From NCBI GenBank assembly GCA_035275145.1, contig DATENH010000055.1:3552-67551 (forward strand): 64,000 bases of DNA. Direction: 5' to 3'. Position numbers and translations under genes: made by a program. This DNA comes from Steroidobacteraceae bacterium (lineage in GTDB: Bacteria > Pseudomonadota > Gammaproteobacteria > Steroidobacterales > Steroidobacteraceae). The number at the start of each line of letters is the position of its first letter. Positions within the stretch are counted from its first letter, which is position 1. A model generated the notes under the pieces. It did no database searches and was not told the origin of the DNA. It saw nothing but the letters and a program-made list of their open reading frames with translations. Shown piece after piece: positions 11,477 through 57,975 of the stretch.

Positions 11477-11554
11477 TGCATTTCTCCCTTGGGTCAGCGA
11501 ACTGCGACCCTTGATCATCACGCGAACGCGCCACGCACGAGCCGGTTCCCGTCA

Positions 11555-12163: not shown

Positions 12164-12281
12164 GGGTGTCTCCTCGCTGATTACTCGAGGATGCAACGCA
12201 TGAAACCGCTGGATCGACCCATGGACCGCTTCGCCCGCGAATTGCGTTGGTCCAGGGGACACTGACTTTTCGGAGCAGACC

Positions 12282-12995
12282 ATGAGAATCGAGGCGAGAA
12301 ACTCTCGCCGCAAGACGCCAGCGAGTGGGCGCCCCAGCTCCGGCGCTCTACGCTGCCGGCGCAAGTTCCTGCGCTTCTTCCCGCAAGGCTTTCGCGACGC
12401 CGACTATCTCGAGACGGAGCGAGACTACAAGTGGGAGTCACATCTGCGTTGGTGCGAGGCGCTCGATGTCGGGGAATTCTCCGCATTGCTGCGCGCCGGC
12501 CGCCACGACGAGATCGCCGCGCGCGCCGTGCGCGTCGAGCAGCGCTCTCTCTACAGCATGCTGTTCTCGTTCGAGAAGATGGCACTACGCGATGCCATCC
12601 GAGCCCCGCATGGCGCTCATGCGTTTGCAGAGGGACTCTTCCAATACCTGCACGGTGAAGGGGAGCTTCAGACCCGCTTCGAATCGTGGGTCGATACGGT
12701 TGCCAGGCTTCCTCGCAAGCAGACTCGCGTGCTCACCTGGCCACTGGTCACGGTCTTCGGGTTCATCGCACAGCCCGAGCAGCACATTTTCATGAAGCCG
12801 AACACGATGCGGGCAGCGGCGCGCGCATACGGCTTCGACCTCGAATATCGGTCACGCCCGAACTGGAATACCTACAGCAAGCTGCTCGAGCTTGCCGCGC
12901 GGGTGCGCAAAGAGCAGCGCGATCTGCGTCCACGCGACCTGATCGACATCCAGTCCTTCCTGTGGGTGCAGGGCTCGACCGAGTACGAGGAATAG
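12282..12995 (+). CDS. conserved hypothetical protein
   Basis: 237-aa ORF with good GC3. Blocks 'KFLRFFPQGFRDADYLETERDYKWESH' and 'DLIDIQSFLWVQGS'. I cannot name a family. Confidence 0.6.
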   Translation: MRIEARNSRRKTPASGRPSSGALRCRRKFLRFFPQGFRDADYLETERDYKWESHLRWCEALDVGEFSALLRAGRHDEIAARAVRVEQRSLYSMLFSFEKMALRDAIRAPHGAHAFAEGLFQYLHGEGELQTRFESWVDTVARLPRKQTRVLTWPLVTVFGFIAQPEQHIFMKPNTMRAAARAYGFDLEYRSRPNWNTYSKLLELAARVRKEQRDLRPRDLIDIQSFLWVQGSTEYEE

Positions 12996-14468: not shown

Positions 14469-15059
14469 ATGATCCGTACCATTTACATCGTCTGCGCAGG
14501 GTTGCTGTCGTGCACGGCAGCGTATGCGCAGCAGGGCGGCAATCCGGGCGGGCTCTCGCCGGATACGCCGGGACTCGAGACTGCCAAGCCTGCCGCTGAT
14601 CACTCGAACACGCAGGACAAACTCTTCGTACGTCAGGCGGCGCTCGGCAACCAGGCGGAAGTGGAACTGGGCCAGCTCGCAGGCAAGAAGGCTGCAACCG
14701 ATCCGGTGCGCAAGTTTGCGCAGCACATGGTCGACGACCATGGCAAGTCAGGCGACCTGGTGCGCAAGCTCGGACGCGGGGTGAACGCGAACATTCCGAA
14801 GGAGCTGGATCCCGAGCATCAGTCGGTGCGCGCGAAATTGGAGCAGGCGTCGGGCAAGGAGTTCGACGTGCAGTACATGGGCAGCATGATTCAGGATCAC
14901 CAGCGCACGGCGAACCTGCTGCAATGGGAAATCAGCAACGGGCAGAGCGAGCCGCTGAAGAAGTACGCGGCCGATACGCTTCCCGATGTGATGGAGCACC
15001 TGGAGATGGCGAAGCAGCAGTACGCAATGCTCACTTCCGGTGCGCCGCCCGCGAAATAG
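14469..15059 (+). CDS. DUF4142-like periplasmic protein
   Basis: Signal peptide, 'FAQHMVDDH' and 'MIQDH' repeats. Sits 15 nt after the peroxidase gene. Confidence 0.8.
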   Translation: MIRTIYIVCAGLLSCTAAYAQQGGNPGGLSPDTPGLETAKPAADHSNTQDKLFVRQAALGNQAEVELGQLAGKKAATDPVRKFAQHMVDDHGKSGDLVRKLGRGVNANIPKELDPEHQSVRAKLEQASGKEFDVQYMGSMIQDHQRTANLLQWEISNGQSEPLKKYAADTLPDVMEHLEMAKQQYAMLTSGAPPAK

Positions 15060-16043: not shown

Positions 16044-16459
16044 CGGCGGGCCTCGAGGCGAAACAGCAGGACGATGCAGGCGAGCAAGGGCAGGTTCTTG
16101 AGAATCGGGCCGTAGGGATGCAGCCAGAATTCCGGGAGCTTGATCGTGATGACGATCGTGTAGCCGAGAATCAGCGCGAACTGAGCGAGCCACAGCCATT
16201 GCCGACGGCGTAGCAGCAGTGTCGCCGCGCCGAGTACGAGATCCAGAGCAGCGGCTGCGTACAACGCGACGTTGGCGAAGACTCCTGTGATGCCGGTCCT
16301 GGCGAGCAGCGCGAGGCTGTCAGCGCGCGGAAATAGTCCCAGGGAGACGATGCCCGTCCAGATCCAGACCAGCGCGATGCTCCAGCGCAGCAGTGGCAGC
16401 AGCCACTGCAGCTCAGCGTGATCCGCGAGCGGCTCGCGTGTATCCGTCAAGATGCGCAT
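16040..16459 (-). CDS. DoxX-like membrane protein
   Basis: Internal ATG at 16459. 4 TM. ATGA overlap with the DUF2269 gene. Confidence 0.6.
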   Translation of the reverse strand: MRILTDTREPLADHAELQWLLPLLRWSIALVWIWTGIVSLGLFPRADSLALLARTGITGVFANVALYAAAALDLVLGAATLLLRRRQWLWLAQFALILGYTIVITIKLPEFWLHPYGPILKNLPLLACIVLLFRLEARR

Positions 16460-16503
16460 CGTGACAAGGGAACTGCGAGTAGCGTGCAGCGCTTGCAATA
16501 GCG

Positions 16504-17016
16504 ATGCACGACAACGTTCGCGAGCAACAGTCGGTTCGTCTCGGCGCCGCGGCGCGGCGCGCCTTGTGTTCCGGTGCCAGCGCCAGCGTTTGTTCCGCAC
16601 TGGCGCTTTCGATCTGCAGCCGTATCGATGAGGGCAGCTACGCGGGCGGACTCAACGGTCCGAGCCAATGGCTTTGGGGGCAGGCGCAGGCCTACACACG
16701 CGAGGCGAGCCTGCGTCATACGGCGGTCGGGTACATCGTTCACCATCTTACATCGGTGTTCTGGGCGACGTCGTACGAGCTGATCTTCGGCGAGCCTGAT
16801 CGACGCAAGACTCCGCTGCGTCGCTGCGCCGACGCTGCGGTCAGCTCAGCGGGTGCCTATGTCGTCGACTACTACCTGACGCCGCCACGCTTTCGTCCCG
16901 GTTTCAGGAAGCACCTGCGCACGCCGTCGATGTATGTCGTCTATGGCGCCTTCGCGCTCGGGCTGGCAGCCGCGAGCATCGTTCGTGACCGCAATCGCAG
17001 GAGGAATACGCAGTGA
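16504..17016 (+). CDS. hypothetical membrane protein
   Basis: 170-aa ORF with hydrophobic segments. Its stop overlaps the start of the FAD/Rieske gene. Confidence 0.45.
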   Translation: MHDNVREQQSVRLGAAARRALCSGASASVCSALALSICSRIDEGSYAGGLNGPSQWLWGQAQAYTREASLRHTAVGYIVHHLTSVFWATSYELIFGEPDRRKTPLRRCADAAVSSAGAYVVDYYLTPPRFRPGFRKHLRTPSMYVVYGAFALGLAAASIVRDRNRRRNTQ

Positions 17017-18605
17017 TGCAGAACCAGCCGACGCCGGGCTCTTACTGGCGGGCCTCTGTGCAGTTGCCGGAGTTCGCGCCACTCGCGGCAGATCTCACTG
17101 TCGATGTCTGTGTGATTGGCGCCGGCATCGCCGGCTTGACGAGCGCTTATCTGCTCAGCAAGCAAGGCCTCAGCGTCGTCCTTATCGAGGCGCTGGGTAT
17201 CGGCAGCGGAGAAACCGGACAGACGACTGCGCACATCGCGGTCCCGGATGATCGCTACTGGCATATCGAGAAGACACTCGGTGCGCGCGCTGCGCGGCAG
17301 GTGGCAGAGAGCTTCGGCGCCGCAGCCGACTTGATCGAGGCCACGACGCGCGACGAAGCCATCGACTGCGACTTCGAACGCGTCTCGGGCTATCTGTATT
17401 CGTGTGCGAAGGATCCCGCCGAGGAGTTGTGCAAGGAACTGGAGGCCGCCGAGCGCGCGGGCGTGCGCGTGTCGTGGCAGGATCGATTGCCGATCTCGAC
17501 TGTTGCATCCGGACCTTGCTTGAAGTTCGCCGACCAGGCGCAGTTCCATTCCTTGCGTTATCTCGTGGGGCTCACCCATGCGTGCACGCAGCGCCGTACG
17601 AGTATCTATTGCGACACGCGGGCTCTGGACATCGAGGAGCGGGAATACGGCGTCGTGATCAAGACGCTCCACGGCAAAATCAGTGCCGCTGCTGCCGTGG
17701 TCGCGACCAACGTGCCTTTCAATGACCGGGTCACCCTCCACGCCAAGCAGTTCGCGTATCAGACCTACGCTGTCGCCGCGCCAGTCGAGCGCGGCTCGCT
17801 GCCGCACGTGCTGATCTGGGATGACGGCGATCCCTACCACTATGTTCGTCTCGCTGCGCTGGACGACGAGCACGATCTGCTCATCGTCGGCGGCGCAGAC
17901 CATCGGACGGGTCAGAATGACGATCCGGAAGAGTGTCATCGCCAGGTCCACGCCTGGTTGCGCGACCGCTTTCCCATGGCGGGTCCGCTCGCTTATCGAT
18001 GGTCGGGTGAAGTCGCGGAGCCGCTCGATGGTATCGCCTATCTCGGCCGCAACCCGGGCAGTCGCAACGTCTATGTGATCACCGGCGATTCCGGTAATGG
18101 AATCTCGCACGCGACTGTCGGCGCCATGCTGGTGTCGGATCAGATCATGCAACGGCCGAATGCGTGGGAGTCGGTCTACGATCCTTCGCGCAAACCGGTG
18201 CGCGAAGCGCTGCATTTCATGCGTGAGCAGGCGAACGTGGCGGCCCAGTATGGCGACTGGGTGGCCGGCGGCGAATCGACGCCGGCGGCGATCGGAGCAG
18301 GCGAGGGCGCCGTCATTCGCCATGGGCTGCGCAAGCTTGCTGTGTTTCGCGACGAGGACGGCGCTCTGCATTGCCATTCGGCGACCTGTCCGCATCTCGG
18401 CTGCGTGGTGCGCTGGAATCCGCTCGATCGCACCTGGGATTGCCCGTGCCACGGTTCGCGATTCAGTACCTACGGCAGCGTGCTGCACGGGCCAGCTGTG
18501 AGCGGCCTTGCTTCCATCGATGAGGAGGACTGGCTGCGCATCGTGGAGGCGCAGCGAGAGAGCAAAGGCGCAGCGACCAAGCAGCCCCACGGGAAGTCAC
18601 GCTGA
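17013..18605 (+). CDS. FAD-dependent oxidoreductase fused to a C-terminal Rieske [2Fe-2S] domain
   Basis: 'DVCVIGAGIAGLTSAY' FAD fold and the Rieske ligands 'CPHLGC...CPCHGS'. Start is GTG 17013 or ATG 17016. Confidence 0.85.
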   Translation: MMQNQPTPGSYWRASVQLPEFAPLAADLTVDVCVIGAGIAGLTSAYLLSKQGLSVVLIEALGIGSGETGQTTAHIAVPDDRYWHIEKTLGARAARQVAESFGAAADLIEATTRDEAIDCDFERVSGYLYSCAKDPAEELCKELEAAERAGVRVSWQDRLPISTVASGPCLKFADQAQFHSLRYLVGLTHACTQRRTSIYCDTRALDIEEREYGVVIKTLHGKISAAAAVVATNVPFNDRVTLHAKQFAYQTYAVAAPVERGSLPHVLIWDDGDPYHYVRLAALDDEHDLLIVGGADHRTGQNDDPEECHRQVHAWLRDRFPMAGPLAYRWSGEVAEPLDGIAYLGRNPGSRNVYVITGDSGNGISHATVGAMLVSDQIMQRPNAWESVYDPSRKPVREALHFMREQANVAAQYGDWVAGGESTPAAIGAGEGAVIRHGLRKLAVFRDEDGALHCHSATCPHLGCVVRWNPLDRTWDCPCHGSRFSTYGSVLHGPAVSGLASIDEEDWLRIVEAQRESKGAATKQPHGKSR

Positions 18606-18652: not shown

Positions 18653-20461
18653 ATGATCAGCTACAGAAGAAGGGGCTGGTACTGCGCGGCTGCGTATTTG
18701 TCGCTCGCAGCGTGGATGCCACCGGCCGTCGCGTCTCCGCCGCAGCCGCCGCCGAGTGCGGCACCGGCCGAAGACGGCAACTGGGTGATGCCCGGTAAGA
18801 ATTTCGCGTCGACGCGCTTCAGCGGTCTGGACGAGCTGAACGTACGGAACGTCGGCAATTTGCGGGTCGAGTTCACGTTCTCGACCGGCGTGCTCCGGGG
18901 CCATGAATCGGCGCCGATCGTGCGGGGCGACACGATGTTTCTCATCACGCCCTATCCGAATCACGTCTACGCGCTCGACCTGTCGCAGCCCGGCGCGCAT
19001 CTGAAGTGGCGCTACGATCCGAAGCCCGCCGCGGCGGCGCAAGGCATCGCCTGCTGCGACGTCGTGAATCGCGGTCTCACGGTCGCGGGCGACAGCGTGT
19101 ATCTGGCGACACTCGATGGACAGGCGATCGCACTCGACGCTGGGACAGGCAAGGAGCGCTGGCGCAAGCAGCTCGGCAACATGAACAAGGGCGAGACGGT
19201 CACGATGGCGCCGTTCGTCGCCGCCGGCAAAGTGCTGGTCGGCAATAGCGGCGGCGAATACGGCGTTCGCGGCTGGGTCATTGCGCTCGACGCGAAGACG
19301 GGTGAGGAGTCATGGCGCGCCTACAGCACCGGGCCGGACGCAGAGGTGCTGATCGGGCCGCGCTTCGCTCCTTTCTATGAAGGCGATCGCGGCAAGGATC
19401 TCGGCGTGCGCACCTGGCCGCCGGAAGCCTGGAAGATGGGCGGCGGCACGATGTGGGGCTGGGTTTCCTACGATCCGGACCTGCAGCTCATCTATCACGG
19501 CACCGCCAATCCGGGACCGTGGAATGCCGAGCAGCGGCCCGGCGACAACAAGTGGACCGGCGGCATCTTCGCGCGCGACGTCGCGACCGGCGAAGCGCGC
19601 TGGTTCCATCAGGCCGTGCCCCACGACCTGTACGACTACGACGCGATCAACGAGATCGTGCTGCTCGACATGCAGTTCAACGGCCAGCCGCGCAAAGTGC
19701 TCGTGCGGCCCGAGCGCAACGGCTACATGTACATCATCGATCGCACGACAGGTGAAGTGCTCGCTGCCGATGCGTATTCCAACGTCAATTCGATCAAGTC
19801 GATCGACCTGAAAACCGGCAGGCCGATCGACAATCCGGACAAGCACCCGCAGCTCGGCAAGGTCGTGCGCGACATCTGCCCCGCCGCGCCCGGCGCGAAA
19901 GACTGGAATCCATCGGCGTATTCGCCCGTCACCGGTCTGCTCTACGTACCGCACCTGAACCTGTGCATGAACTTCGAGAGTGTCGAGGCGAACTACATTG
20001 CCGGCACTCCGTACGTCGGTGCCAACGTCACGATGCATGCCGGACCGGGCGGCAATCGCGGCGAGATGCTCGCGTGGGACGTCGTGCAGCGCAAGCCGGC
20101 GTGGAAGATCGCGGAGGATCTCCCGCTGTGGAGCGGAGCGCTGGCGACCGCCGGCAACCTGGTCTTCTACGGCACGCTCGACGGGGTGTTCAAGGCTGTC
20201 GATGCCACGACGGGCGAAGTGAAGTGGCAGTTTCAGACGGGCTCGGGAATCGTGGGACAGCCGGTGACTTATCGCGGGCCGGATGGTCGTCAATATGTGG
20301 CGGTGCTCTCGGGGGTCGGTGGTTGGTCCGGAGCGATCGTCGCAGGCGATCTCGACGCGCGCGATCCCACCGCGGCGCTCGGGTTCGCCAATGCGATGAG
20401 CGATCTGCCGCAGAAGACGGCGAAAGGCGGAATGCTGTATGTGTTCGCGGTGCCCAGATAG
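18653..20461 (+). CDS. xoxF: PQQ-dependent methanol/ethanol dehydrogenase, lanthanide (XoxF) type
   Basis: Signal peptide, vicinal-Cys 'GIACCDVVNRG', and 'PHDLYDYDAINE' carrying the extra Asp two residues after the catalytic Asp (D-Y-D), as in Ln-dependent enzymes. Eight-blade propeller W-motifs. Confidence 0.9.
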   Translation: MISYRRRGWYCAAAYLSLAAWMPPAVASPPQPPPSAAPAEDGNWVMPGKNFASTRFSGLDELNVRNVGNLRVEFTFSTGVLRGHESAPIVRGDTMFLITPYPNHVYALDLSQPGAHLKWRYDPKPAAAAQGIACCDVVNRGLTVAGDSVYLATLDGQAIALDAGTGKERWRKQLGNMNKGETVTMAPFVAAGKVLVGNSGGEYGVRGWVIALDAKTGEESWRAYSTGPDAEVLIGPRFAPFYEGDRGKDLGVRTWPPEAWKMGGGTMWGWVSYDPDLQLIYHGTANPGPWNAEQRPGDNKWTGGIFARDVATGEARWFHQAVPHDLYDYDAINEIVLLDMQFNGQPRKVLVRPERNGYMYIIDRTTGEVLAADAYSNVNSIKSIDLKTGRPIDNPDKHPQLGKVVRDICPAAPGAKDWNPSAYSPVTGLLYVPHLNLCMNFESVEANYIAGTPYVGANVTMHAGPGGNRGEMLAWDVVQRKPAWKIAEDLPLWSGALATAGNLVFYGTLDGVFKAVDATTGEVKWQFQTGSGIVGQPVTYRGPDGRQYVAVLSGVGGWSGAIVAGDLDARDPTAALGFANAMSDLPQKTAKGGMLYVFAVPR

Positions 20462-21017
20462 GAGTCGGGCTGAAGCCCGACCTACAGCGATCACATTGAC
20501 GCTGCTGGTTGTCGTTGCGCTCAGCGCGTGTCATCGGGAGAACCGGTACTTCGAGGCGCCGCCGGGGACGGACGTGGCGCCGACGCAGGTTGCGATGAGC
20601 TCGCTCGTTGCCGGTCAATCCTCTGCTCAGTTCCGCGAGCAGCAGCGCAAAGAGTACGAGGAGAACGCTTACCACCTCTCCGAAGGCAAGCGGCTGTTCA
20701 CCTCTTTCAATTGCACCGGCTGCCATGCACACGGCGGCGGCGGCTCCGGGCCCGCGCTCATGGATGACCGCTGGATCTATGGCGGCGAGATCGATCAGAT
20801 CTATCTCACGATCGTGCAGGGCCGGCCGAATGGGATGCCGGCGTTCGGTGGCAAGATTCCGCCGCAACAGATCTGGCAGCTCGCAGCTTACGTGCGTTCG
20901 CTAGGCGGGCACGGGCCGAAGGCGGCGCGGCCGAGCCGCGACGATCACATCCAGATTCCGGCGGAGCAGGGCAGGCGCGACGAAGAGTTGAACACGGCGC
21001 CGGCGCAGACCGACTGA
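20439..21017 (+). CDS. lipoprotein-type class I cytochrome c
   Basis: Signal with lipobox 'VVVALSAC' and haem site 'CTGCH' with the distal 'NGMPAF'. The ATG at 20439 overlaps the xoxF 3' end by 23 nt. An alternative TTG lies at 20496. Confidence 0.75.
   Translation: MCSRCPDRSRAEARPTAITLTLLVVVALSACHRENRYFEAPPGTDVAPTQVAMSSLVAGQSSAQFREQQRKEYEENAYHLSEGKRLFTSFNCTGCHAHGGGGSGPALMDDRWIYGGEIDQIYLTIVQGRPNGMPAFGGKIPPQQIWQLAAYVRSLGGHGPKAARPSRDDHIQIPAEQGRRDEELNTAPAQTD
20464..20481 (+). promoter_or_regulatory. stem-loop immediately after the xoxF stop
   Basis: GTCGGGC-TGAA-GCCCGAC, a 7-bp perfect stem. It lies inside the 5' coding part of the cytochrome c gene and has no U-tract. Confidence 0.3.
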
Positions 21018-21024
21018 GTCGAGT

Positions 21025-21954
21025 ATGCACTCCGTGTTGCAAGCCCTCGGCGTCCACGCTCAGCACATCGAGCTCGTGTGGCACACGATGCTGTGGGTCT
21101 GCGGCTTCATGTACCTGCTCGTGATTGCCTTCCTGATTCACGCGATCTGGCGCCGTCGGGGCGATTCCGACGCTGAGGCTCCCCGCCGCATGTCCGTCGC
21201 TCTGGCCGGCTGGATCGGCCTGATGGTGCTTGGCCTGTTCGGCCTGACTCTCACCAGCTTCCTCACCGATCGCGCACTCGTGCACGCAGCCAGCGAGCCG
21301 CAGGTGACGTTGAAGATCACGGGTTACCAATGGTGGTGGGAGATCGAGTACACGAATCCGGATCCGAGCCGGCAGGTGCGCACGGCGAACGAGATCCACC
21401 TGCCGGTGGGGGCGCAGGTGCTCGCGGAGCTCGGATCGAATGACGTCATTCACAGTCTCTGGGTGCCGAGCCTGAACGGCAAGCGCGATCTGATTCCGGG
21501 TCGTCCAACCGAGATCAGTCTGCAGCCGCTGCGCATCGGGCGTTATCGCGGTCAATGCGCCGAGTTCTGTGGGCTGCAGCACGCGAAGATGGCACTGGAA
21601 GTGGTGGTCGAATCGCAGCAGGACTATGACGCCTGGTACGAGCGACAGCTTGCGGCTGCGCCACCGGCGTCCGAGGCGCGCGCCGCACGCGGCCAGCAAG
21701 TGTTCTTCAACACTGCATGCAATCTGTGTCACGCGATCGCGGGTACGGATGCAGCCGCCACGGTCGGACCCGATCTGTCGCACGTCGCGAGTCGCCGCAT
21801 GCTGGCGGCCGGAGCATTGCCGAACGATCCCGAGCACCTGCGGCGCTGGCTGCAGAATCCGCAGCGCGAGAAACCCGGCAATCACATGCCGATCGTGAGC
21901 CTTGGTCGCGACGATCTCGATGCGCTGATCGCTTACCTGGGGACGCTGCAGTGA
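21025..21954 (+). CDS. ctaC: cytochrome c oxidase subunit II with fused C-terminal cytochrome c domain (caa3-type)
   Basis: 'GYQWWWEIEY', the CuA ligands 'VIHSLWVP...CAEFCGLQHAKM', and a C-terminal 'CNLCH' haem-c site. Confidence 0.9.
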   Translation: MHSVLQALGVHAQHIELVWHTMLWVCGFMYLLVIAFLIHAIWRRRGDSDAEAPRRMSVALAGWIGLMVLGLFGLTLTSFLTDRALVHAASEPQVTLKITGYQWWWEIEYTNPDPSRQVRTANEIHLPVGAQVLAELGSNDVIHSLWVPSLNGKRDLIPGRPTEISLQPLRIGRYRGQCAEFCGLQHAKMALEVVVESQQDYDAWYERQLAAAPPASEARAARGQQVFFNTACNLCHAIAGTDAAATVGPDLSHVASRRMLAAGALPNDPEHLRRWLQNPQREKPGNHMPIVSLGRDDLDALIAYLGTLQ

Positions 21955-23861
21955 GCGCACAAAGTCCATCGCTCGATGGCGAATGGCTCGACGAGTCTGC
22001 GACCCGCCAGCGTCTGGAAAAGACGTGGGACGATGCGCCCGGCCTGTGGGGCGCCCTGACGACGCTCGATCACAAGCGCGTCGGCTTGCGCTACATCGTG
22101 ACTGCCTTTGGCTTCTTCGGACTGGCCGGAGTGGCGGCATTCGTGATGCGGCTGCAGCTCGCGCATGCCGAGAACGATCTGGTCGGGCCGGATCTGTACA
22201 ACCAGCTGTTCACGATGCACGGCTCGACGATGATGTTCCTGTTCGCCGTGCCGATCATGCAAGCCGTCGGGATCTATTTCGTACCGCTGATGGTCGGCAC
22301 GCGCGCGATTTCGTTCCCGCGGCTGCTCGCCTTCAGTTACTGGATCTACCTGTTCGGCGGCCTGCTGCTGTGGACCGCGTTCTTCCTGAACATCGGGCCG
22401 GATGCCGGCTGGTTCGCGTACGTGCCGCTGTCGGGGCCGCAATATTCGCCCGGCAAGCGCGTCGACATCTGGGCGCAGATGATCACGTACACCGAGCTGT
22501 CGAGCATCGCGGTCGCGGTCTCGACCATCGCCACGATCTTCAAGCAGCGCGCGCCCGGCATGGCGCTGAATCGCGTGCCGTTGTTCGTCTGGGCGATCCT
22601 GGTGATGAGCTTCATGGTGCTGTTCGCGATGCCGTCGGTGATGATCGGCAGCTCGTTCCTGATCATGGATCGGCTGGTCGGCACGCATTTCTTCAATCCG
22701 GCCGAAGGTGGCGACGCGCTGCTCTGGCAGCACCTGTTCTGGTTCTTCGGCCATCCCGAGGTGTACATCATCTTCATCCCGGCGCTCGGGATGGTGTCGT
22801 CGATCGTCCAGACTTTCTCGCGACGGCCGGTGTTCGGCTATCCGCTGATGGTGCTGTCGCTGATCGCGACCAGCCTGTTCGCGTTCGGCCTGTGGGTGCA
22901 CCACATGTTCGCGACCGGCTTGCCGCGCCTTGGCAACAGCTTCTACACGGCTGCGAGCATGGTGATCGCGATTCCGACCGGCATTCAGATCTTCGGCTGG
23001 ATTGCCACTGTGTGGCTCGGCAAGCCGCGCTTCACCACCCCGTTCCTGTTCATCATCGGTTTCATCGTCGTGTTCGTGATCGGCGGTCTCACGGGGGTGA
23101 TGCTGGCCTCGGTGCCGCTCGATCTGCAGGTCCACGACACGTACTTCGTCGTGGCGCATTTTCACTACGTGCTGATCGGCGGCGGCGTGTTCCCGCTGCT
23201 CGGCGCGGTCTACTACTGGTTTCCGAAGATCACCGGACGGCTGCTCGATGAGCGTCTCGGCAAGCTGAACTTCTGGCTGTTCTTCATCGGCTTCAACGTC
23301 ACGTTCTTCCCGATGCACTATCTCGGCCTCGCTGGCATGCCGCGCAGGGTGTACACATATTCCTCAGGGCTCGGCTGGGATGGATTGAATCTGCTCGCGA
23401 CCGGCGGTGCCGTGCTCATCGCCATCAGCTTGCTCCTGCTCGCATTCAACATCGTACGCAGCCTGCGCTCGGGTGCAGCAGCGGGCGCGAATCCGTGGGA
23501 TGCGGACACGCTGGAATGGGCGACGTCCTCACCACCGTTGAGCTTCAACTTCACTCACATTCCGCTCGTCACGGGCAGTCATCCGCTGTGGGACAGCGAA
23601 CGGTTGCACGTGATGCGCGGGCTGCGGCTGGATGAGCGGGAGCTCGTGCTGACAACTGTTCTGGATGCACAGCCGGACCTGCGCGAGCCCTCCGTGCCGC
23701 CGTCGATCTGGCCGTTCCTTGCGGCGATTGCAGTGGGGACGATGTTCGTCACATCCATCTTCTCCCCGTGGGCGGTGATCGTCGGTGCGATTCCGATTGC
23801 CATCACGCTGACCGCCTGGTTCTGGCCAAAGAGCGCGGCGGAAGAGGAGATCGAGCAGTGA
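21951..23861 (+). CDS. ctaD: cytochrome c oxidase subunit I (A-type)
   Basis: GTG at 21951 forms a GTGA overlap with the ctaC stop. Motifs 'WFFGHPEVYIIFIP', 'VWVHHMFATG' and 'HFHYVL'. Confidence 0.92.
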   Translation: MSAQSPSLDGEWLDESATRQRLEKTWDDAPGLWGALTTLDHKRVGLRYIVTAFGFFGLAGVAAFVMRLQLAHAENDLVGPDLYNQLFTMHGSTMMFLFAVPIMQAVGIYFVPLMVGTRAISFPRLLAFSYWIYLFGGLLLWTAFFLNIGPDAGWFAYVPLSGPQYSPGKRVDIWAQMITYTELSSIAVAVSTIATIFKQRAPGMALNRVPLFVWAILVMSFMVLFAMPSVMIGSSFLIMDRLVGTHFFNPAEGGDALLWQHLFWFFGHPEVYIIFIPALGMVSSIVQTFSRRPVFGYPLMVLSLIATSLFAFGLWVHHMFATGLPRLGNSFYTAASMVIAIPTGIQIFGWIATVWLGKPRFTTPFLFIIGFIVVFVIGGLTGVMLASVPLDLQVHDTYFVVAHFHYVLIGGGVFPLLGAVYYWFPKITGRLLDERLGKLNFWLFFIGFNVTFFPMHYLGLAGMPRRVYTYSSGLGWDGLNLLATGGAVLIAISLLLLAFNIVRSLRSGAAAGANPWDADTLEWATSSPPLSFNFTHIPLVTGSHPLWDSERLHVMRGLRLDERELVLTTVLDAQPDLREPSVPPSIWPFLAAIAVGTMFVTSIFSPWAVIVGAIPIAITLTAWFWPKSAAEEEIEQ

Positions 23862-24487
23862 GCGCGCGGGACCTCGACGAGCGGCCGCTGCAATTCATGG
23901 GCGATCTGTCGCACCTGGAGGATCATGGCCACAGCCATCGGAGCCTCACGTGGTGGGGCATGATGGGGCTGATCTGCGTCGAAGCCACCGCCCTCGGGCT
24001 GGCAGTAGTGGCCTATCTGTACCTGTCGACTCACGAGCAGCAATGGCCGCCTGCGTATCTGCTGCCCGACCCCGGCTGGGGCACGGCGTTCACCGTCATT
24101 GTCCTCTTGAGCTTCGTGCCGAACATGCTGCTCGACAAGCGCGCGCAACAGGAAAAACTCGGGCCGGTGCGCTTGTGGATAGTCGTCATGACTGTGATCG
24201 GCTTCATCCTGGTGGTCATCCGCTATTTCGAGTTCCGCTCCATGCACGTCGCGTGGAGCGATTCGGCCTATGGCTCGGCGGTGATCGTGTTGCTCGGCCT
24301 GCACACCGTCCACCTGGTGACGGATCTCTACGATTCGATCGTACTGGTGGTACTGATGTTTACGCGTCATGGCGACACCGGGCGCCGTTACGTGGACGTC
24401 GCAGAGAACGCGATCTACTGGAACTTCGTCATCTACGTGTGGGTGCCGATCTACGTGGTGTTGTACTTCGTGCCGAGGTGGTTGTGA
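23858..24487 (+). CDS. ctaE: cytochrome c oxidase subunit III-family protein (short form)
   Basis: GTG at 23858 forms a GTGA overlap with the ctaD stop. 5 TM. 'SAYGSAVIVLLGLHTVHLVTD' and 'YWNFV'. Confidence 0.8.
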   Translation: MSARDLDERPLQFMGDLSHLEDHGHSHRSLTWWGMMGLICVEATALGLAVVAYLYLSTHEQQWPPAYLLPDPGWGTAFTVIVLLSFVPNMLLDKRAQQEKLGPVRLWIVVMTVIGFILVVIRYFEFRSMHVAWSDSAYGSAVIVLLGLHTVHLVTDLYDSIVLVVLMFTRHGDTGRRYVDVAENAIYWNFVIYVWVPIYVVLYFVPRWL

Positions 24488-24846
24488 CCAGCGAGCGCGA
24501 GCTGCATTCGCCGCTGCAGCGCTTCGGCAAATGGTCGGGCACCTGGCTCGGCACGATCGCGTGGTTTGCGGATCAGCAGATCATGTCGATGACCGTGTAC
24601 GCCAACTGCCCGCCGCGCACGCACGCGCTCGCCGTCGGCGTTGGTGCGGCTTGCGCATTGCTCGCGCTGATTGGCGGGCTTCACTCGTGGAGTGTCTATC
24701 GTTCGCTTCCCGCCGGAGAGGTTGCGAGCGCCTCCCGTCGCACGGATCGATTCATCGCTGCGCTGTCGCTGCTGCTCGCGTGTATCTCCATCCTCGCAAT
24801 CATCTTCGGCACCACTGCAGGCGTGATCTTGCGATGCGAGCGCTGA
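24484..24846 (+). CDS. small membrane protein (possible oxidase subunit IV-like)
   Basis: GTG at 24484 forms a GTGA overlap with the previous stop. About 3 TM helices. Its position matches small subunits in similar oxidase operons. Confidence 0.5.
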   Translation: MTSERELHSPLQRFGKWSGTWLGTIAWFADQQIMSMTVYANCPPRTHALAVGVGAACALLALIGGLHSWSVYRSLPAGEVASASRRTDRFIAALSLLLACISILAIIFGTTAGVILRCER

Positions 24847-25718
24847 TCGTCCTGTTGCTGTTGCTGCCGAGCCTTACGCGGGCGCATACGCAGGAGACGT
24901 CGGGTCGAGAATCGGGCGAGTGGGTGCTCATTTCGTTACTGCTGGTCGCGGGTGCCTGGTATGCGGCAGGATACCTTCGGGTATGGGGCTCTTCGCGGAC
25001 GGGCCGCGCGGTGCTGGCGCGACAGGGTGCGCTGTTCGCTGGCGGCTGGCTGGTCATCGCCGCGTCGTTGCTCAGCCCACTTCATGAGCTGGGCGGGCGT
25101 TCCTTCACCGCACACATGATCGAGCACGAGCTGCTGATGCTCGTGGCGGCGCCGCTGATCGCATTTGCGCGGCCAATCGGTGTCTTCATCTGGGCGCTGC
25201 CGCGCTCGGCGCGACACGCGCTCGGCACTCTCGGTCATCGCCATTGGTTCGCGTCGCTGTGGCGAAGTATTTCGTCGCCGCTGAGCGCCAGCGTGATCCA
25301 GGCGGCAATGCTCTGGCTCTGGCACGCGCCACTGTTTTTCGACGCCGCGCTGCGCAGCGAGCTGTGGCACGCGGTTCAGCACCTGTCGCTCGTATCCTCG
25401 GCGCTGCTGTTCTGGTGGTCGATCAATACAGCATCCGCGCTCGGGCGCAGGCATGGCGTTGCGGGTTTCTATCTGTTCTTCACTTCGGTGCACAGCGCAT
25501 TGCTCGGAGCGCTGATGGCCTTCGCGCAGAGTCCCTGGTACTCCGAATATGCACGCATGGGGATGTCAGGCACGGCTGGCCTCTCGCCGCTGGAGGATCA
25601 GCAGATCGCGGGTTTGATCATGTGGGTACCGGGTGGTGCCGTGCATGCCCTGGCAGCGCTCATCTATCTGAGCCGTTGGTTCGGAGGCAAGCCGTGGGGC
25701 GTCGCCGTGACACGGTGA
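24834..25718 (+). CDS. ctaG: cytochrome c oxidase assembly factor CtaG (caa3 type) family
   Basis: ATG at 24834. 'FTAHMIEHELLMLVAAPL', 'WHAVQHLS' and 'LEDQQIAGLIMWVPGG'. Confidence 0.8.
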   Translation: MRALIVLLLLLPSLTRAHTQETSGRESGEWVLISLLLVAGAWYAAGYLRVWGSSRTGRAVLARQGALFAGGWLVIAASLLSPLHELGGRSFTAHMIEHELLMLVAAPLIAFARPIGVFIWALPRSARHALGTLGHRHWFASLWRSISSPLSASVIQAAMLWLWHAPLFFDAALRSELWHAVQHLSLVSSALLFWWSINTASALGRRHGVAGFYLFFTSVHSALLGALMAFAQSPWYSEYARMGMSGTAGLSPLEDQQIAGLIMWVPGGAVHALAALIYLSRWFGGKPWGVAVTR

Positions 25719-26497
25719 AATGTCTGCTGCTGCTGAGCGCGCTCGCGCTGTCGGCTGGTGCGCAGGCGCGCGAGCTGAAGGTCTGCGCGGACCCGAACAA
25801 TCTGCCGTTTTCGAATCAACGCGAGGAAGGCTTCGAGAACAAGCTCGTGCAGCTGGTGGCGCGTGAGTTGCACGCCGACGTCAGGTACGTTTGGTGGGCG
25901 CAACGGCGCGGCAACGTGCGCGAGACGCTCAAGGCAGGTCTTTGCGATCTCATCCCGGGAGTGGCAAGCAATCTGGAGATGCTCGCAACCACCCGACCGT
26001 ACTACCGCTCCGCCTACATGTTCGTGACGCGCGCTGCTGACGAGCTCGATCTCGAGGGATTCGACGACACGCGTCTGCGCACTCTGACCATCGGTGTGCA
26101 GATGATCGGCGACGACTCCGCCAATACTCCACCGGCGCATGCGCTCGCTCGACGTGGGGTCATCGACAACGTGCGCGGCTACATGCTGTACGGCGACTAC
26201 GCGCAGGAGAATCCGCCGCGCGCGATCATCGACGACGTGGCGCGCCACCGTCTCGATGTGGCCGTCGTCTGGGGTCCGCTGGCCGGCTACTTCGCGCGAC
26301 AGAGTAAGCCTGCACTGCATCTCCAGCCGGTCAGTCCGCTCATCGACGGGCCCATGCTGCCGATGGCGTTCGACATATCGATGGGCGTGCGCAAAGACGA
26401 TCGCGCACTGCGTAGCGAGCTCGACGGCGTGCTCACGCAGCAGTCCGCGAAAGTTCAGGCGTTGCTCCACGAGTATGGGATTCCGCTCGTCAGATGA
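25715..26497 (+). CDS. xoxJ: quinoprotein-dehydrogenase-associated periplasmic binding protein (XoxJ/MoxJ-like)
   Basis: GTG at 25715 forms a GTGA overlap with the ctaG stop. Signal peptide then 'LKVCADPNNLPFSN', typical of MoxJ/XoxJ. Confidence 0.8.
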   Translation: MKCLLLLSALALSAGAQARELKVCADPNNLPFSNQREEGFENKLVQLVARELHADVRYVWWAQRRGNVRETLKAGLCDLIPGVASNLEMLATTRPYYRSAYMFVTRAADELDLEGFDDTRLRTLTIGVQMIGDDSANTPPAHALARRGVIDNVRGYMLYGDYAQENPPRAIIDDVARHRLDVAVVWGPLAGYFARQSKPALHLQPVSPLIDGPMLPMAFDISMGVRKDDRALRSELDGVLTQQSAKVQALLHEYGIPLVR

Positions 26498-27057
26498 GTA
26501 GACAGCCGCGCAAACAGGACACTGCTCTGCTGATCCTCGATATGGTTTCGGAGTTCCGCTTTCCGGACGCCGCGCCGGTGCTCCGCGGCGCGCGCCGTCC
26601 GGCAGGTGCGATCGCACGACTCAAGGCGCGAGCCAGGACGGCGGGAATTCCAGTCATCTACGTCAATGACACGGCCGGCAAGTGGGAGTCGGATCCGCGG
26701 GAGTTCGTGCAGCGCTGTCTGGCACCGGATGCTCCCGGCCACGATCTGGTCGAGCTGATCGAACCGGATCTGGACCGGGACTACTTCATGTTCAAGCCGC
26801 GACACTCCGCATTCTTCGGCACGCCGCTCGAATCGTTGCTGGGCCAACTAGCGCTGCGTCGGCTGGTTCTCACGGGAATCAGCAGCCATCAGTGTGTGCT
26901 GTTCACGGCGATGGATGCGCACGTGCGCGACTATGAGTTGATCGTGCCGACAGACTGTGTCGGCGCGGGATCGAGAGCGGAAACCGGTCATGCTCTCTTC
27001 ATCGCCGAGCACGCAATGGGTGCGCGCGTCCCAGCCTCCACTCGGCTGCGATTCTGA
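26494..27057 (+). CDS. isochorismatase-family cysteine hydrolase
   Basis: ATGA overlap with xoxJ. 'ALLILDM', 'KPRHSAFFGT' and 'LVLTGISSHQCV' form the D-K-C triad context. Confidence 0.85.
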   Translation: MSRQPRKQDTALLILDMVSEFRFPDAAPVLRGARRPAGAIARLKARARTAGIPVIYVNDTAGKWESDPREFVQRCLAPDAPGHDLVELIEPDLDRDYFMFKPRHSAFFGTPLESLLGQLALRRLVLTGISSHQCVLFTAMDAHVRDYELIVPTDCVGAGSRAETGHALFIAEHAMGARVPASTRLRF

Positions 27058-27901: not shown

Positions 27902-28108
27902 TCAATGTTCCGCACGTTCTTCTCTGTAGGCGAAGCGCTCGCGAATATGCGCGTTGAAGAACACACCCTTCGCCAAGGCCGTCCGCATTGCTTCGAAGAT
28001 TTCAGGGGGCACGTCCAGATAGCGATAGCGCCGACCCGACTGAAAAGTGATCAGCAGTGTCCGCGACGTCTCGTCGTATTCGAAGGAGCGTATGACGGCA
28101 GAGGGCAT
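27902..28108 (-). CDS. KTSC-domain protein (68 aa)
   Basis: ATG at 28108. 'IRSFEYDETSRTLLITFQSGRRYRYLDVPPEIFEAM...KGVFFNAHIR'. Confidence 0.75.
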   Translation of the reverse strand: MPSAVIRSFEYDETSRTLLITFQSGRRYRYLDVPPEIFEAMRTALAKGVFFNAHIRERFAYREERAEH

Positions 28109-28215
28109 CGAAGTCTCTAGCGACGGAAGTTGCCGAAGACTCGACGGGTTCCACCGGCTCGCCCGTATGGTTTTCCTGACCTCGACATTGCGCTTCGCCC
28201 GAGGAAAATAGCGGA

Positions 28216-29442
28216 ATGGCAAAACGGACCGGCAGTGCCGATCTTCCCCTGCATGGCGGCCGCGTACCGCCGTGGCTCTCGGCGCGCATGGCCAGGCTCG
28301 GGCGCGTCATCGTCGAGGCGATCGTGCTGGAGCACGGCCGCGACGAGCTGTTGCGCCGGCTGGCGCATCCGTTCTGGTTTCAATCCTTCGGTGCCGTCAT
28401 GGGAATGGACTGGCATTCCTCGGGCATCACGACGAGTGTGATTGGCGCGCTGAAGCGTGGGCTTGCGCCGGTGCAAGACGAGTTGGGCATCTATGTCTGC
28501 GGCGGTAAAGGTGCACAGTCGCGCCGCACGCCGTTGGAATTGACCGTCATCGGCGAGCGCACCGGCCTCGACGCTGCAGCGCTGACGCACGCGAGCCGTC
28601 TGGTGGCCAAGGTCGATAGCGCGGCAGTTCAAGATGGCTTCGATCTCTACCTGCACGGATTCTTCGTTAGCGGCGACGGCCACTGGTGCGTGGTACAGCA
28701 AGGGATGAGTGAAGCCCGGCGCGAAGCACGGCGCTATCACTGGCTGTCCGAGAGTCTGCAGAGCTTCCTGGATTCGCCCCATGCAGCCATCGAGGGGAAG
28801 AATCAGGGTGCGATCGTGAATCTTGCCGACACACGCGCAGAACGCAATCGACAGGCCGGTCTCGAGCTCGTGCGTGCGGGACCTGACCAGCCCGTGAGCT
28901 TGTTGCGACGCTGGCGCGATTCGGGGAACGGATCGCTTACGTTGTTCCCGGAGACTCTACCGGTCCCCCATCTGCACCTGCCCGCCCATCACGACGTTCG
29001 GCCTACGGACGTCATGCTTCGGCGCCTGCATGCGACGCTTGCGGCTGCTGCTGACCGCGGTCCGAGTGACTTTGTCGATCTGCTGCTGACGCCAGGTGTG
29101 GGTGCGCGCACGGTCGCTGCGCTGGCGTTGGTCGCGGAAGTCGTGCATGGCGCGCCTGCGCGCTTCAGCGATCCGGCGCGATTCTCATTGGCGCACGGCG
29201 GCAAGGACGGACATCCGTTTCCTGTGCCGCTGGCCGTGTACGACACGACCATTCGTGTGCTGAAGGATGCTGTCGCACGCGCCAGGCTAGGCAATGACGA
29301 TCGGCTCGCCGCGATTCGCCAGCTGGACGAACAAGCCCGCCTGCTCGAAGGACGCGTTGCCGGGACATCCTTCGAGGCCTTCCTCGAGAAGGAGCGTGCG
29401 CATGCCATCGAGTACGGCGGTCGAACTGTAGTCGGGCCGTAG
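28216..29442 (+). CDS. DUF763-family protein
   Basis: 'ADLPLHGGRVPPWL...HPFWFQSFGAVMGMDWHSSGITTSVIGALK'. The C-terminal half holds an HhH-like 'LLLTPGVGARTVAALAL'. Confidence 0.85.
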   Translation: MAKRTGSADLPLHGGRVPPWLSARMARLGRVIVEAIVLEHGRDELLRRLAHPFWFQSFGAVMGMDWHSSGITTSVIGALKRGLAPVQDELGIYVCGGKGAQSRRTPLELTVIGERTGLDAAALTHASRLVAKVDSAAVQDGFDLYLHGFFVSGDGHWCVVQQGMSEARREARRYHWLSESLQSFLDSPHAAIEGKNQGAIVNLADTRAERNRQAGLELVRAGPDQPVSLLRRWRDSGNGSLTLFPETLPVPHLHLPAHHDVRPTDVMLRRLHATLAAAADRGPSDFVDLLLTPGVGARTVAALALVAEVVHGAPARFSDPARFSLAHGGKDGHPFPVPLAVYDTTIRVLKDAVARARLGNDDRLAAIRQLDEQARLLEGRVAGTSFEAFLEKERAHAIEYGGRTVVGP

Positions 29443-29462
29443 GAGGAACACGCGAGGTTCAC

Positions 29463-29894
29463 ATGGCGTTCTGGCTGCAGTTCGCTCGCGGCGCTCGCGG
29501 CGCTCGCGGCGATTCCGCTGTTCGTATTGACGCATGCGGGCCAAGGATGACTCGACACACATTCGATCTGCTGCTCGAAGTGCTCGACCATGAGGTCACG
29601 GATGTCGACGACGTGTCGTGCGGCATGGTCGACGACATCGAGCTGAGCAATACGCCGGAGGGTCCAGTGGTCAGTGCCTTGCTCATTGGTCCCGGTGCCT
29701 GGATACCGAGGCTGCCAGCGATGCTGCAATGGGTCGCCCCAAAGGTCCTTGGTTCGGCGACAGTCCGTGTGCCATGGGACGAGGTGGAGCGCGTGGCGGA
29801 AACGATCAAGCTCAAGTCGACAGCCGGCGCGCTGGGCCTCGGGCGACTCGACAGGAGGGTGGGAGCATGGCTGAGCCGCAAGCCCGAATCCTAG
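29463..29894 (+). CDS. PRC-barrel-like protein
   Basis: 'LLLEVLDHEVTDVDDVSCGMVDDIEL' looks PRC-barrel-like. The start is uncertain: ATG 29463 (GAGG at -6) or ATG 29547. Confidence 0.5.
   Translation: MAFWLQFARGARGARGDSAVRIDACGPRMTRHTFDLLLEVLDHEVTDVDDVSCGMVDDIELSNTPEGPVVSALLIGPGAWIPRLPAMLQWVAPKVLGSATVRVPWDEVERVAETIKLKSTAGALGLGRLDRRVGAWLSRKPES
29483..29509 (+). repeat. perfect 9-bp tandem repeat (CGCTCGCGG) x3
   Basis: Read directly from the sequence. It is in-frame and encodes ARG-ARG-ARG if the long start is used. Confidence 0.9.
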
Positions 29895-30142
29895 CGAGTG
29901 CCTGCGCGATGGAGTTGAAGAAGGTCGTGACTGCGGACGGCCGCATGCTCGGCCGCGTCTTCGACCTGCGCTGCCGGTGGGAACCCGGCGCGCGAGCTCC
30001 GGTCGTCGATCAGGTCGTCTTCGGCAAGCTGGGGCTGCTCGAGCGCGCTGGCTTGCGTCAATTCAAGCCGCGCTCGGTGCACTGGTATCTGGTCGAAGCG
30101 GTTCGCGGCGACGAAGTCGTCGTCGCCGCCAGCAAGCGCTAG
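29867..30142 (+). CDS. PRC-barrel-like small protein
   Basis: ATG at 29867 preceded by GGAGGGTGGGAGC. 'VVTADGRMLGRVFDL'. Overlaps the previous ORF by 28 nt. Confidence 0.5.
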   Translation: MAEPQARILASACAMELKKVVTADGRMLGRVFDLRCRWEPGARAPVVDQVVFGKLGLLERAGLRQFKPRSVHWYLVEAVRGDEVVVAASKR

Positions 30143-30149
30143 CAGTCTT

Positions 30150-30569
30150 TCAATCGAGCATATTGGCCGGCACCTTCCCACCGTGCGCCGCCAGCTCTTT
30201 CATCACGCGCTTGTGCAGCCAGATATTCATCGCAGCGGAATCCCCGGGGTCGCCGGTATAGCCGAGCTCGCGGGCGAGCTCCCTGCGATTCTCGAAGCTC
30301 GAGTCCATTCCGACGAGCTTCATCAGATCTACGATCGACGTGCGCCAGTTCAATTTCTGGCCATTGTCGGCAGCCATCTTTTCCAGGACTGCTTCGACAT
30401 CGACCGTTTGCTGCGCGGGCGCTGCCGCTGGTCTTTGCGGCGGAGCGGTCGTGCCGCTGCTTGCTGACGGTGTGCGGTTAGCTGTCGGTGCTGGACTGGC
30501 CGGCGTGTTGGGTCGCGCAGCGGCCTTGTTGCCGAAGATGGCGTCTTTGATCTTGCTGAAGATACTCAT
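30150..30569 (-). CDS. DUF3597-like protein
   Basis: 'MSIFSKIKDAIFG' N-terminus, a Pro/Ala-rich linker and a conserved C-terminal domain. Confidence 0.8.
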   Translation of the reverse strand: MSIFSKIKDAIFGNKAAARPNTPASPAPTANRTPSASSGTTAPPQRPAAAPAQQTVDVEAVLEKMAADNGQKLNWRTSIVDLMKLVGMDSSFENRRELARELGYTGDPGDSAAMNIWLHKRVMKELAAHGGKVPANMLD

Positions 30570-35673: not shown

Positions 35674-35807
35674 TGACTGCTCCGCCCGCGATTTTGCGGT
35701 CACTGTACGCGCAGTCCTTGTTCTGCACCATCTGCGCAATCGGCAACCTTGTGGCCCGCCTTGCATTCGGCACACTTTCGCGACTTTTCACGGAAGGAGC
35801 CCAGGAC

Positions 35808-51070: not shown

Positions 51071-51083
51071 GGGAGTGACTCGC

Positions 51084-56164: not shown

Positions 56165-56351
56165 GGACGTCTCGGGCCTCGGCGGCAGGTATGCCTCCGG
56201 GGTGTCGTTTGACGAGGCCCGCAGACCACTTCAATCGCGGCTCTTCATGACGTTTTTGCAGCGCGTATCAATTACACGGGTCGTGGATCGATTGATGCTG
56301 CCGGCGCGTCACGTCCAACACGTCTTGATGAGCACCTGGACGAATTGGACC

Positions 56352-57152: not shown

Positions 57153-57251
57153 GGTAGAGTGCGTCCAGCACCGTGTGCGCCTGCCACAGTGTGATGCGAT
57201 TGGTTTCTCTCGATCGCCCGTCTAACGAAAAATAACCGCCGCGGGTTCTCG

Positions 57252-57974: not shown

Positions 57975-57975
57975 C

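Follow-up and report, generated by a model that had tools for sequence, protein, structure and literature searches.

A XoxF3-type dehydrogenase gene joined to a caa3-type oxidase cassette in a Steroidobacteraceae bacterium

The canonical xoxFGJ and mxaFJGI systems, which are built around dehydrogenases that use pyrroloquinoline quinone (PQQ), rely on terminal oxidases encoded elsewhere. In the DNA of a Steroidobacteraceae bacterium analysed here, a 64,000-nucleotide stretch of contig DATENH010000055.1 (hereafter the window), a xoxF gene and a complete caa3-type terminal oxidase stand together in one string of nine genes. Clusters of this content have been described before. Voutsinos et al. 2024 (PMC10875860) found xoxF3 co-localised with the genes for CoxI/II/III, CtaG, CytC and XoxJ, and a conserved hypothetical protein of ~110-130 amino acids (aa) encoded between CoxIII and CtaG, in Acidobacteria, Verrucomicrobia and Gemmatimonadetes; as cited there, Keltjens et al. 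2014 had earlier recorded a small number of xoxF3 operons with cox and ctaG. We found the published content in full, in a single string, at positions 18653-26497 of the window. A first-pass annotation, made from the letters alone, had taken the arrangement to be unusual. It is instead the reported norm for XoxF3 (PMC10875860) and occurs also on RefSeq plasmids of cultured strains, and the window holds a Steroidobacteraceae copy of the known XoxF3-cox cluster type, not a new kind of system. The operon type has been described by comparative genomics but has not been characterised by experiment, and our literature search found no experimental link between xoxF and coxB or ctaD.

What the window adds is the extension of the XoxF3-cox cluster to Steroidobacteraceae, a cluster cytochrome that comes from the oxidase cassette and not from the XoxG family, the circulation of that cassette without xoxF, and fusions of CtaG with XoxJ in relatives. 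The reading that we favour, and hold to be rather probable, is that XoxF3 and XoxJ have been joined to a portable A1-type caa3 cassette as a short respiratory branch. The nine genes would be transcribed together, with their translation coupled, and periplasmic XoxF3 would oxidise methanol or another small alcohol. Its electrons would be taken up by the lipoprotein cytochrome c encoded directly downstream, which would be tethered to the membrane, and would go from there by way of the CoxB cytochrome c domain, CuA and haem a to the haem a3-CuB site, which would reduce O2 with proton pumping. CtaG would load copper into the oxidase, and XoxJ would assist the maturation or activation of XoxF.

Gene content of the cluster

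Gene identities were taken from Pfam and NCBIfam profile searches, with scores in bits set against the cut-off of each model (Table 1). Coordinates and profiles bear out the first-pass annotation of nine closely packed genes on the plus strand: neighbours overlap by 4-23 nucleotides (nt) or are spaced by 7 nt. The start of the cytochrome c gene lies inside the 3' end of xoxF, as had been noted, in a 23-nt overlap that is kept in relatives, and the 7-nt gap follows between the cytochrome c gene and coxB. GTGA overlaps occur at 21951, 23858, 24484 and 25715, and the ATGA overlap claimed at 26494 is present. The GTGA positions were correct, but the four junctions are not consecutive as had been claimed, a 13-nt overlap of the 120-aa gene with ctaG (ATG at 24834, stop at 24846) lying between the third and the fourth. 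As all related contigs examined are packed just as tightly and in one direction, we do not attribute this packing to chance. Terminator-like sites inside the cluster numbered 8 against 6.3 +/- 2.7 expected and promoter counts were likewise at chance level, both scans being uninformative in a genome of 64% guanine plus cytosine; an Rfam scan of the window gave zero matches.

Table 1. Genes of the cluster, their positions in the window and the evidence for their identity
Feature	Position	Strand	Evidence
Nine-gene string; host a soil gammaproteobacterium (Steroidobacteraceae)	18653-27057	+	all nine coordinates re-checked
xoxF, clade XoxF3 by sequence, predicted periplasmic PQQ/lanthanide-type alcohol (methanol) dehydrogenase, 602 aa, N-terminal signal peptide	18653..20461	+	TIGR03075 633.4 bits (cut-off 480)
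Lipoprotein class I mono-haem cytochrome c, 192 aa, signal peptide	20439..21017	+	Pfam Cytochrome_CBB3/Cytochrom_C
coxB/ctaC, subunit II, CuA and fused C-terminal cytochrome c	21025..21954	+	TIGR02866 158.8 bits (cut-off 147.7), PF00116 and PF00034
coxA/ctaD, subunit I, A1 type, 636 aa	21951..23861	+	TIGR02891 709 bits (cut-off 670.75)
coxC/ctaE, short subunit III, five predicted transmembrane segments	23858..24487	+	PF00510 29.2 bits (cut-off 23.8)
120-aa membrane protein, cassette-specific, at the ctaF (subunit IV) position	24484..24846	+	no Pfam/NCBIfam match
ctaG, Caa3_CtaG type (not Cox11), membrane copper-insertion/assembly factor	24834..25718	+	PF09678 171.7 bits
xoxJ-like periplasmic binding protein, signal peptide	25715..26497	+	TIGR03871 298.9 bits (cut-off 212)
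Isochorismatase-family hydrolase, ATGA overlap with xoxJ	26494..27057	+	PF00857 124 bits

Among solved structures, the dehydrogenase matches the XoxF of Methylacidiphilum fumariolicum SolV best (4MAE, 646 bits), ahead of the XoxF1 structure 7O6Z (523 bits) and of the ethanol dehydrogenases PedH and ExaA (313-325 bits). Its annotation as a XoxF-type enzyme with vicinal cysteines and a D-Y-D motif was confirmed at the level of residues: C134-C135 align with the cysteine pair of the SolV enzyme, E202 with Glu172, N286 with Asn256 and D328-Y329-D330 with Asp299-Tyr300-Asp301, placing D330 on the lanthanide-specific Asp301. After trimming of the alignment, the enzyme shares 63-77% identity with the XoxF3 group, 51% with SolV XoxF2 and 47% with the XoxF5 of Methylorubrum extorquens AM1. 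The enzymes of Azospirillum, Mesorhizobium, Gemmatimonas and Benzoatithermus stand at 67-71% and a plasmid enzyme of Methylocella tundrae T4 at 63%, the closest named dehydrogenase being that of a Povalibacter metagenome-assembled genome (MAG) at 77%. Plasmid matches split into a group at 60-70% (Azospirillum, Mesorhizobium, Sinorhizobium and Methylocella tundrae) and a remainder at 48% or below, where a RefSeq-annotated XoxF5 falls with 47.5% identity.

Azospirillum and Mesorhizobium sequences are named xoxF3 in PMC7065363, and passages of the preprint on M. tundrae T4 (bioRxiv 10.1101/2024.01.15.574570) give that genome one XoxF3, in cluster T4_00353-55, which we take to be the enzyme on T4 plasmid p1. 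Given the identity gap and these XoxF3-labelled relatives, the dehydrogenase is by its sequence a member of clade XoxF3, the accompanying tree having been built without XoxF1 and XoxF4 references. A scan of a genome collection by exact 8-residue XoxF patterns proved too specific and returned only distant beta-propeller proteins of 24-32% identity.

The 192-aa cytochrome carries CTGCH at residue 92, the Met in GMPAF and the lipobox LSAC at residue 28, so that its annotation as a lipoprotein stands. Whether it groups with XoxG/cL or with oxidase-associated class I cytochromes had been left undecided in the first-pass annotation, and the comparison comes out for the latter. Its best solved relatives are CcoP domains, at 66 bits against 34 for cytochrome cL; PDB entries of the two kinds range over 52-67 and 29-35 bits. 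With TIGR03872 (MoxG) it reaches 41.7 bits, far below the cut-off of 147.8 for the cL family. Over its full length it is 36-39% identical to the cytochrome that precedes coxB in cassettes without xoxF. These orthologues, together with the TIGR03872 result and the structure scores, rule out an identity as XoxG/cL, and because the cassette occurs without xoxF complete with its leading cytochrome, we assign the 192-aa protein to the oxidase cassette. Though outside the XoxG family, it may work like XoxG, and no cL/XoxG-type cytochrome was found among the ~55 open reading frames (ORFs) of the window scanned against Pfam. Among the cytochromes aligned, the lipobox Cys is present in 7/7 that are linked to XoxF (Steroidobacteraceae-like contigs, Benzoatithermus and Mesorhizobium ciceri) and replaced by Trp in 2/2 from loci without xoxF (Rhizobium etli and Mesorhizobium japonicum).

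The annotated fusion of a cytochrome c domain to CoxB was upheld by the CuA motif, the CNLCH motif and the profiles alike. CoxB has two transmembrane helices, H143 in DVIHS, CAEFCGLQHAKM at residue 178, CNLCH at 232 and HMP at 287, with the PF00034 cytochrome domain spanning residues 220-308. The CuA site CAEFCGLQHAKM with its upstream His, and quinol-oxidase models far below their cut-offs, mark it as the cytochrome c oxidase type. CoxA keeps its metal ligands and channel residues (H90, H268/E270/Y272, H317-H318, H403 and H405); the GHPEVY motif that contains H268, E270 and Y272 holds the D-channel Glu and the cross-linked Tyr of the A1 type, and two extra C-terminal helices lie at 582-621. 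Actinobacterial and Bacillus oxidases are better-scoring matches to CoxA than the aa3 oxidases of Paracoccus and Rhodobacter, and among the solved relatives of CoxA the actinobacterial aa3 reaches 492 bits and the Rhodobacter and Paracoccus aa3 ~385 bits. The coxC gene is kept in all related loci. From these sequences the caa3-type oxidase is predicted to contain haem A, to reduce O2 and to pump protons; the ORFs of the 64-kb window that were scanned included neither ctaA nor ctaB.

The 120-aa membrane protein represents a family of 236 representatives of about 108-128 aa. Over 25 sequences, down to 32% identity, W17, G19, G23, Q32, C42, G64, R89, F90 and C118 are invariant. Two of these residues are cysteines that may pair in a disulfide or bind a metal; C118 stands in a C-terminal R-C-E-R motif. 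An AlphaFold2 model shows three long helices (predicted local distance difference test, pLDDT, 83), and a Foldseek search of the PDB with it gave nothing below an E of 0.7, the hits being generic helical bundles only. Neither sequence nor fold supports an identity as subunit IV (CtaF/COX4_pro), which is a positional guess, since the gene position alone matches. By size and position the gene matches the published hypothetical of ~110-130 aa between CoxIII and CtaG; the 'vesicle-transport-like' fold suggested for that protein in print rests on generic helical similarity, and we gave it no weight. Homologues occupy the same position in the Steroidobacteraceae-like, Mesorhizobium, Benzoatithermus and Azospirillum loci, and unannotated genes of the same size do so in the Gemmatimonas and Rhizorhabdus loci.

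The binding protein encoded after ctaG passes TIGR03871 and fails the MoxJ equivalog model TIGR03870 (152.5 bits, cut-off 258), and we therefore class it as XoxJ-like, outside MxaJ proper. With the solute-binding protein that follows xoxF3 in alphaproteobacterial loci it shares 49-60% identity. A Steroidobacteraceae MAG encodes proteins 100% identical to this XoxJ-like protein and to the 120-aa protein of the window. In three relatives ctaG and xoxJ form one ORF, at 3855-5966 of L021, 9949-12051 of L025 and 16206-17906 of the P0007 contig. The fusion is ~566 aa long, with a hydrophobic linker helix where XoxJ has its signal peptide, and PF09678 and PF00497 occur together in four further database proteins (P0373, P0380, P0384 and P0386). 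In the window the two genes stay separate at the GTGA overlap. The isochorismatase gene that closes the string follows xoxJ also in the P0007 contig and L025; it is absent from six other loci (L004, L021, L007, L016, L033 and L034), and with no tblastn match in the alphaproteobacterial loci we regard it as a peripheral passenger and not as a core part.

Linkage across hosts and competing explanations

The oxidase lies within ~6 kb of xoxF3 in 13/13 independent XoxF3 loci examined, drawn from Steroidobacteraceae, Azospirillum, Mesorhizobium, Methylocella, Rhizorhabdus, Benzoatithermus and Gemmatimonas; the XoxF3 of Methylosinus trichosporium OB3b is outside this set. At least four gene orders occur among these loci, across three phyla-level groups. 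The order of the window, xoxF-cyt c-coxBAC-small protein-(ctaG)-xoxJ, is that of Steroidobacteraceae-like metagenome contigs, of plasmid p1 of Azospirillum argentinense Az39 and of Rhizorhabdus argentea. In M. ciceri pMc1284, Benzoatithermus flavus and a Gemmatimonas MAG the order is xoxF-xoxJ-cyt c-coxBAC-small protein-ctaG. The oxidase stands upstream of xoxF in one 6-Mb genome and is inverted downstream of it in M. tundrae T4. A synteny check had been proposed with the first-pass annotation, and it thus found the oxidase linkage in all 13 loci and the window order in two cultured strains. Among the plasmid matches listed, the 15 XoxF3-like matches with a CoxA have the gene pair within ~5 kb, and a metagenome scan with a narrower alignment of the 120-aa protein gave 10 loci, all close relatives. 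Linkage that outlasts rearrangement argues for selection on co-location and not for shared ancestry alone.

Expression data from T4 point in the same direction. According to passages of the T4 preprint (bioRxiv 10.1101/2024.01.15.574570), xoxF3 (T4_00353-55) was significantly upregulated under anoxic conditions with methanol and N2O, and a neighbouring aa3 oxidase (T4_00359-61) was up 17-60 fold under the same condition; those passages draw no connection between the two gene sets. The tags T4_00353-61 appear to correspond to the T4 plasmid xoxF3 locus examined here, as they span nine genes in the same number and order. Together with the CtaG-XoxJ fusions, this co-induction supports a functional link, and the dehydrogenase-oxidase cluster is real, conserved and probably functional.

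Several observations weigh against a branch of this kind. CoxA relatives of 60-80% identity were found on 94 plasmids, against XoxF3-like genes on 16, and the cassette stands with its leading cytochrome but without xoxF in R. etli p42b, M. japonicum pMLb, Rhizobium leguminosarum WSM1325 and Bradyrhizobium barranii. Its electron donor may differ from host to host, and the oxidase is not private to XoxF. The cassette cytochrome is outside the cL/XoxG family, the known acceptor from methanol dehydrogenases. Two relatives whose XoxF is 76-78% identical have neither ctaG nor xoxJ after the 120-aa gene (L001:16087-16449 and L005:15959-16321), where these genes are either dispensable at the cluster or encoded elsewhere in the genome. 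No XoxF3 enzyme or system has been experimentally characterised, according to PMC10875860, and XoxF3 was barely expressed in Methylocella silvestris during laboratory growth on methanol or methane (PMC9291206).

The most direct competing explanation makes the cassette a general, mobile and often plasmid-borne alternative oxidase that draws on a common cytochrome c pool, with xoxF3 and xoxJ adjoining it through a shared regulon or island (e.g., for starvation, hypoxia or stress) and XoxF3 electrons reaching any active oxidase. The cassette indeed stands without xoxF on most carrier plasmids, recurrently beside an FdhF/YdeP-type oxidoreductase, its leading cytochrome is its own, and neighbours resembling a stress island recur in the window and at other loci. 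The T4 induction occurred under anoxic N2O respiration, and passages of the preprint report that several other dehydrogenases and oxidases were also up. A general oxidase is, however, at odds with adjacency in all 13 XoxF3 loci despite four gene orders, with the kept 23-nt overlap of xoxF and the cytochrome gene, with the fusions of CtaG to XoxJ, with a lipobox found only in the XoxF-linked cytochromes among those aligned, and with the lack of a nearby gene for a cL-type acceptor among the ORFs scanned. We consider this explanation unlikely.

The favoured branch might also serve another purpose than methanol oxidation. XoxF3 would then not be primarily a methanol dehydrogenase and would act on some other compound of the periplasm (for example ethanol or a higher alcohol, formaldehyde or another aldehyde), the cluster being a respiratory sink for it in a non-methylotroph. 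In favour of this, no XoxF3 has been characterised, the ORFs of the 64-kb window that were scanned included no gene for PQQ synthesis, formaldehyde oxidation or C1 assimilation, the carriers comprise non-methylotrophic rhizobia, Azospirillum and Steroidobacteraceae, and a short-chain dehydrogenase/reductase gene adjoins the cluster, with a zinc-dependent alcohol dehydrogenase gene adjoining it in one relative. Against this, all active-site residues of the characterised XoxF methanol dehydrogenases are present, the SolV methanol dehydrogenase outscores PedH and ExaA by far, and XoxF3 is upregulated with cerium in the methanotroph M. trichosporium OB3b (PMC12482762). A substrate other than methanol is possible in our view, if doubtful.

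A bolder version of the favoured branch seems to us quite improbable. XoxF3, the lipoprotein cytochrome c and caa3 would form a membrane-attached 'alcohol oxidase' supercomplex, with XoxJ held beside CtaG, and would act as a persistence module that lives on trace methanol from the atmosphere or from plants, is switched on in starvation or O2 limitation and bypasses the rest of the respiratory chain. The stress-island neighbours and the T4 induction would then reflect a real regulon, and such a module would be comparable to high-affinity H2 or CO oxidation. For the plain branch of XoxF3, XoxJ and the caa3 cassette, the first-pass annotation had proposed a self-contained path from alcohol through XoxF, cytochrome c and caa3 to O2. 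Gene identities, operon-like packing and comparative linkage support that path, but not exclusive use of the oxidase; since other loci carry the cassette without xoxF, the word 'self-contained' is plausible but unproven.

If the adjoining oxidase were a private electron sink, alcohol oxidation would become a two-component proton-pumping branch that need not depend on central metabolism. Such a branch would matter for the use of atmospheric and plant methanol by non-methylotrophs and for their need for lanthanides, XoxF3 being reported as abundant in Acidobacteria, Gemmatimonadota and Proteobacteria of soil and weathered rock. A. argentinense Az39 and R. argentea are cultured, genetically tractable carriers of the same gene order.

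Surroundings of the cluster

The first-pass statement that the window contains no genes for PQQ biosynthesis or lanthanide uptake holds for the ORFs scanned. Directly upstream, on the same strand and ending 48 nt before xoxF, a gene at 17013-18605 encodes a 530-aa FAD-dependent oxidoreductase of the DAO family with a C-terminal Rieske domain. In related contigs its counterpart (62-66% identity) follows response-regulator and HWE-kinase genes. We did not count it as a core part of the cluster, for it lies three or four genes from xoxF in Steroidobacteraceae-like relatives and has no tblastn match in the alphaproteobacterial loci.

Genes of stress type flank the cluster (7299-9048, 10943-12364, 14469-15059 and 27902-30569) and comprise two Ku genes, a hemerythrin, two DUF4142 genes, KTSC, DUF763 and DUF3597. 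Near the cassette in unrelated hosts (L004, L016, L019, L031 and L032) we found Ku/LigD, Hsp20, Mn catalase, DUF2934, a low-affinity iron permease, hemerythrin and BON genes. These surroundings look like a general-stress or dormancy island. Between hemerythrin and DUF4142 genes, 13065-14453 encodes a 462-aa secreted protein with two CXXCH motifs (CLDCH and CATCH) and no significant Pfam family. Another gene, at 35553-37508, encodes a 651-aa protein with a RoxA-like cytochrome c domain (PF21419) and a further CXXCH region. A lipid A modification set at 49964-59523 comprises an epimerase/dehydratase, an ArnA-like formyltransferase, a DegT/ArnB aminotransferase, an ArnT-type glycosyltransferase, two PAP2 phosphatases and an EptA-type phosphoethanolamine transferase.

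Comparison with known systems

The closest described systems are the XoxF3-cox clusters of PMC10875860, which have the same gene content, the Gemmatimonas locus likewise carrying the full set. The window differs from them in its gammaproteobacterial host, in having no separate XoxG, NRAMP or TonB receptor, and in the place of xoxJ, which follows ctaG and is not beside xoxF; the published description is one of co-localisation only. The plasmid p1 locus of A. argentinense Az39 (NZ_CP007794) and the locus of R. argentea share the order of the window, with XoxF 67-70% identical and, in Azospirillum, CoxA 69% identical. Unlike the window, Az39 has no ctaG between the small protein and xoxJ, and R. 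argentea has an extra cytochrome c gene and a 316-aa gene before xoxJ.

With the xoxFGJ and mxaFJGI systems, as in the XoxF5 of M. extorquens AM1 and in MxaF, the window shares a PQQ dehydrogenase with a Cys pair, a XoxJ/MoxJ partner and a c-type cytochrome as output. The lanthanide Asp of the window enzyme is common to XoxF enzymes only and is not found in the Ca-dependent MxaF. From the AM1 XoxF5 system the window is set apart by an identity of only 47% and by an adjoining cytochrome outside the cL/XoxG family, and from the canonical xox and mxa systems in general by a complete terminal oxidase in the gene string itself.

On the side of the oxidase, the Bacillus subtilis ctaCDEFG operon has the same gene order, a cytochrome c fused to subunit II and a CtaG of PF09678 and not of Cox11 type. 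Both have a long subunit I with two extra helices, a short five-helix subunit III and a small protein at the ctaF position. The window departs from it in a 120-aa protein without detectable likeness to a known subunit IV in an extra lipoprotein cytochrome c gene that leads the cassette, and in the joining of the whole to a dehydrogenase. The Bacillus-type caa3 operon is equivalent to the 'A1 oxidase with Caa3_CtaG' operon subtypes of Alphaproteobacteria (PMC6431628). Rhizobial cassettes without xoxF (p42b, pMLb, WSM1325 pR132503 and B. barranii pCC829_1) run cyt c-coxB-ctaD-cox3-(small protein)-ctaG-cyt c, and their identity to the window is 62-65% in CoxA and 36-39% in the leading cytochrome; they have no xoxJ, and FdhF/YdeP genes often adjoin them. 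A molybdoenzyme gene of that family lies near the cassette in 3/4 rhizobial plasmid loci (L018, L019, L031 and L032); in two of them it immediately precedes the cytochrome gene of the cassette, and fdhD was seen once.

The rus operon of Acidithiobacillus ferrooxidans (cyc2-cyc1-coxBACD-rus) is an experimentally established case in which a single operon combines a substrate-specific periplasmic or outer electron donor and its cytochromes with a dedicated aa3-type oxidase. The cluster of the window follows the same logic, with an unrelated donor (Fe2+ in the rus system), unrelated proteins and an unrelated lineage.

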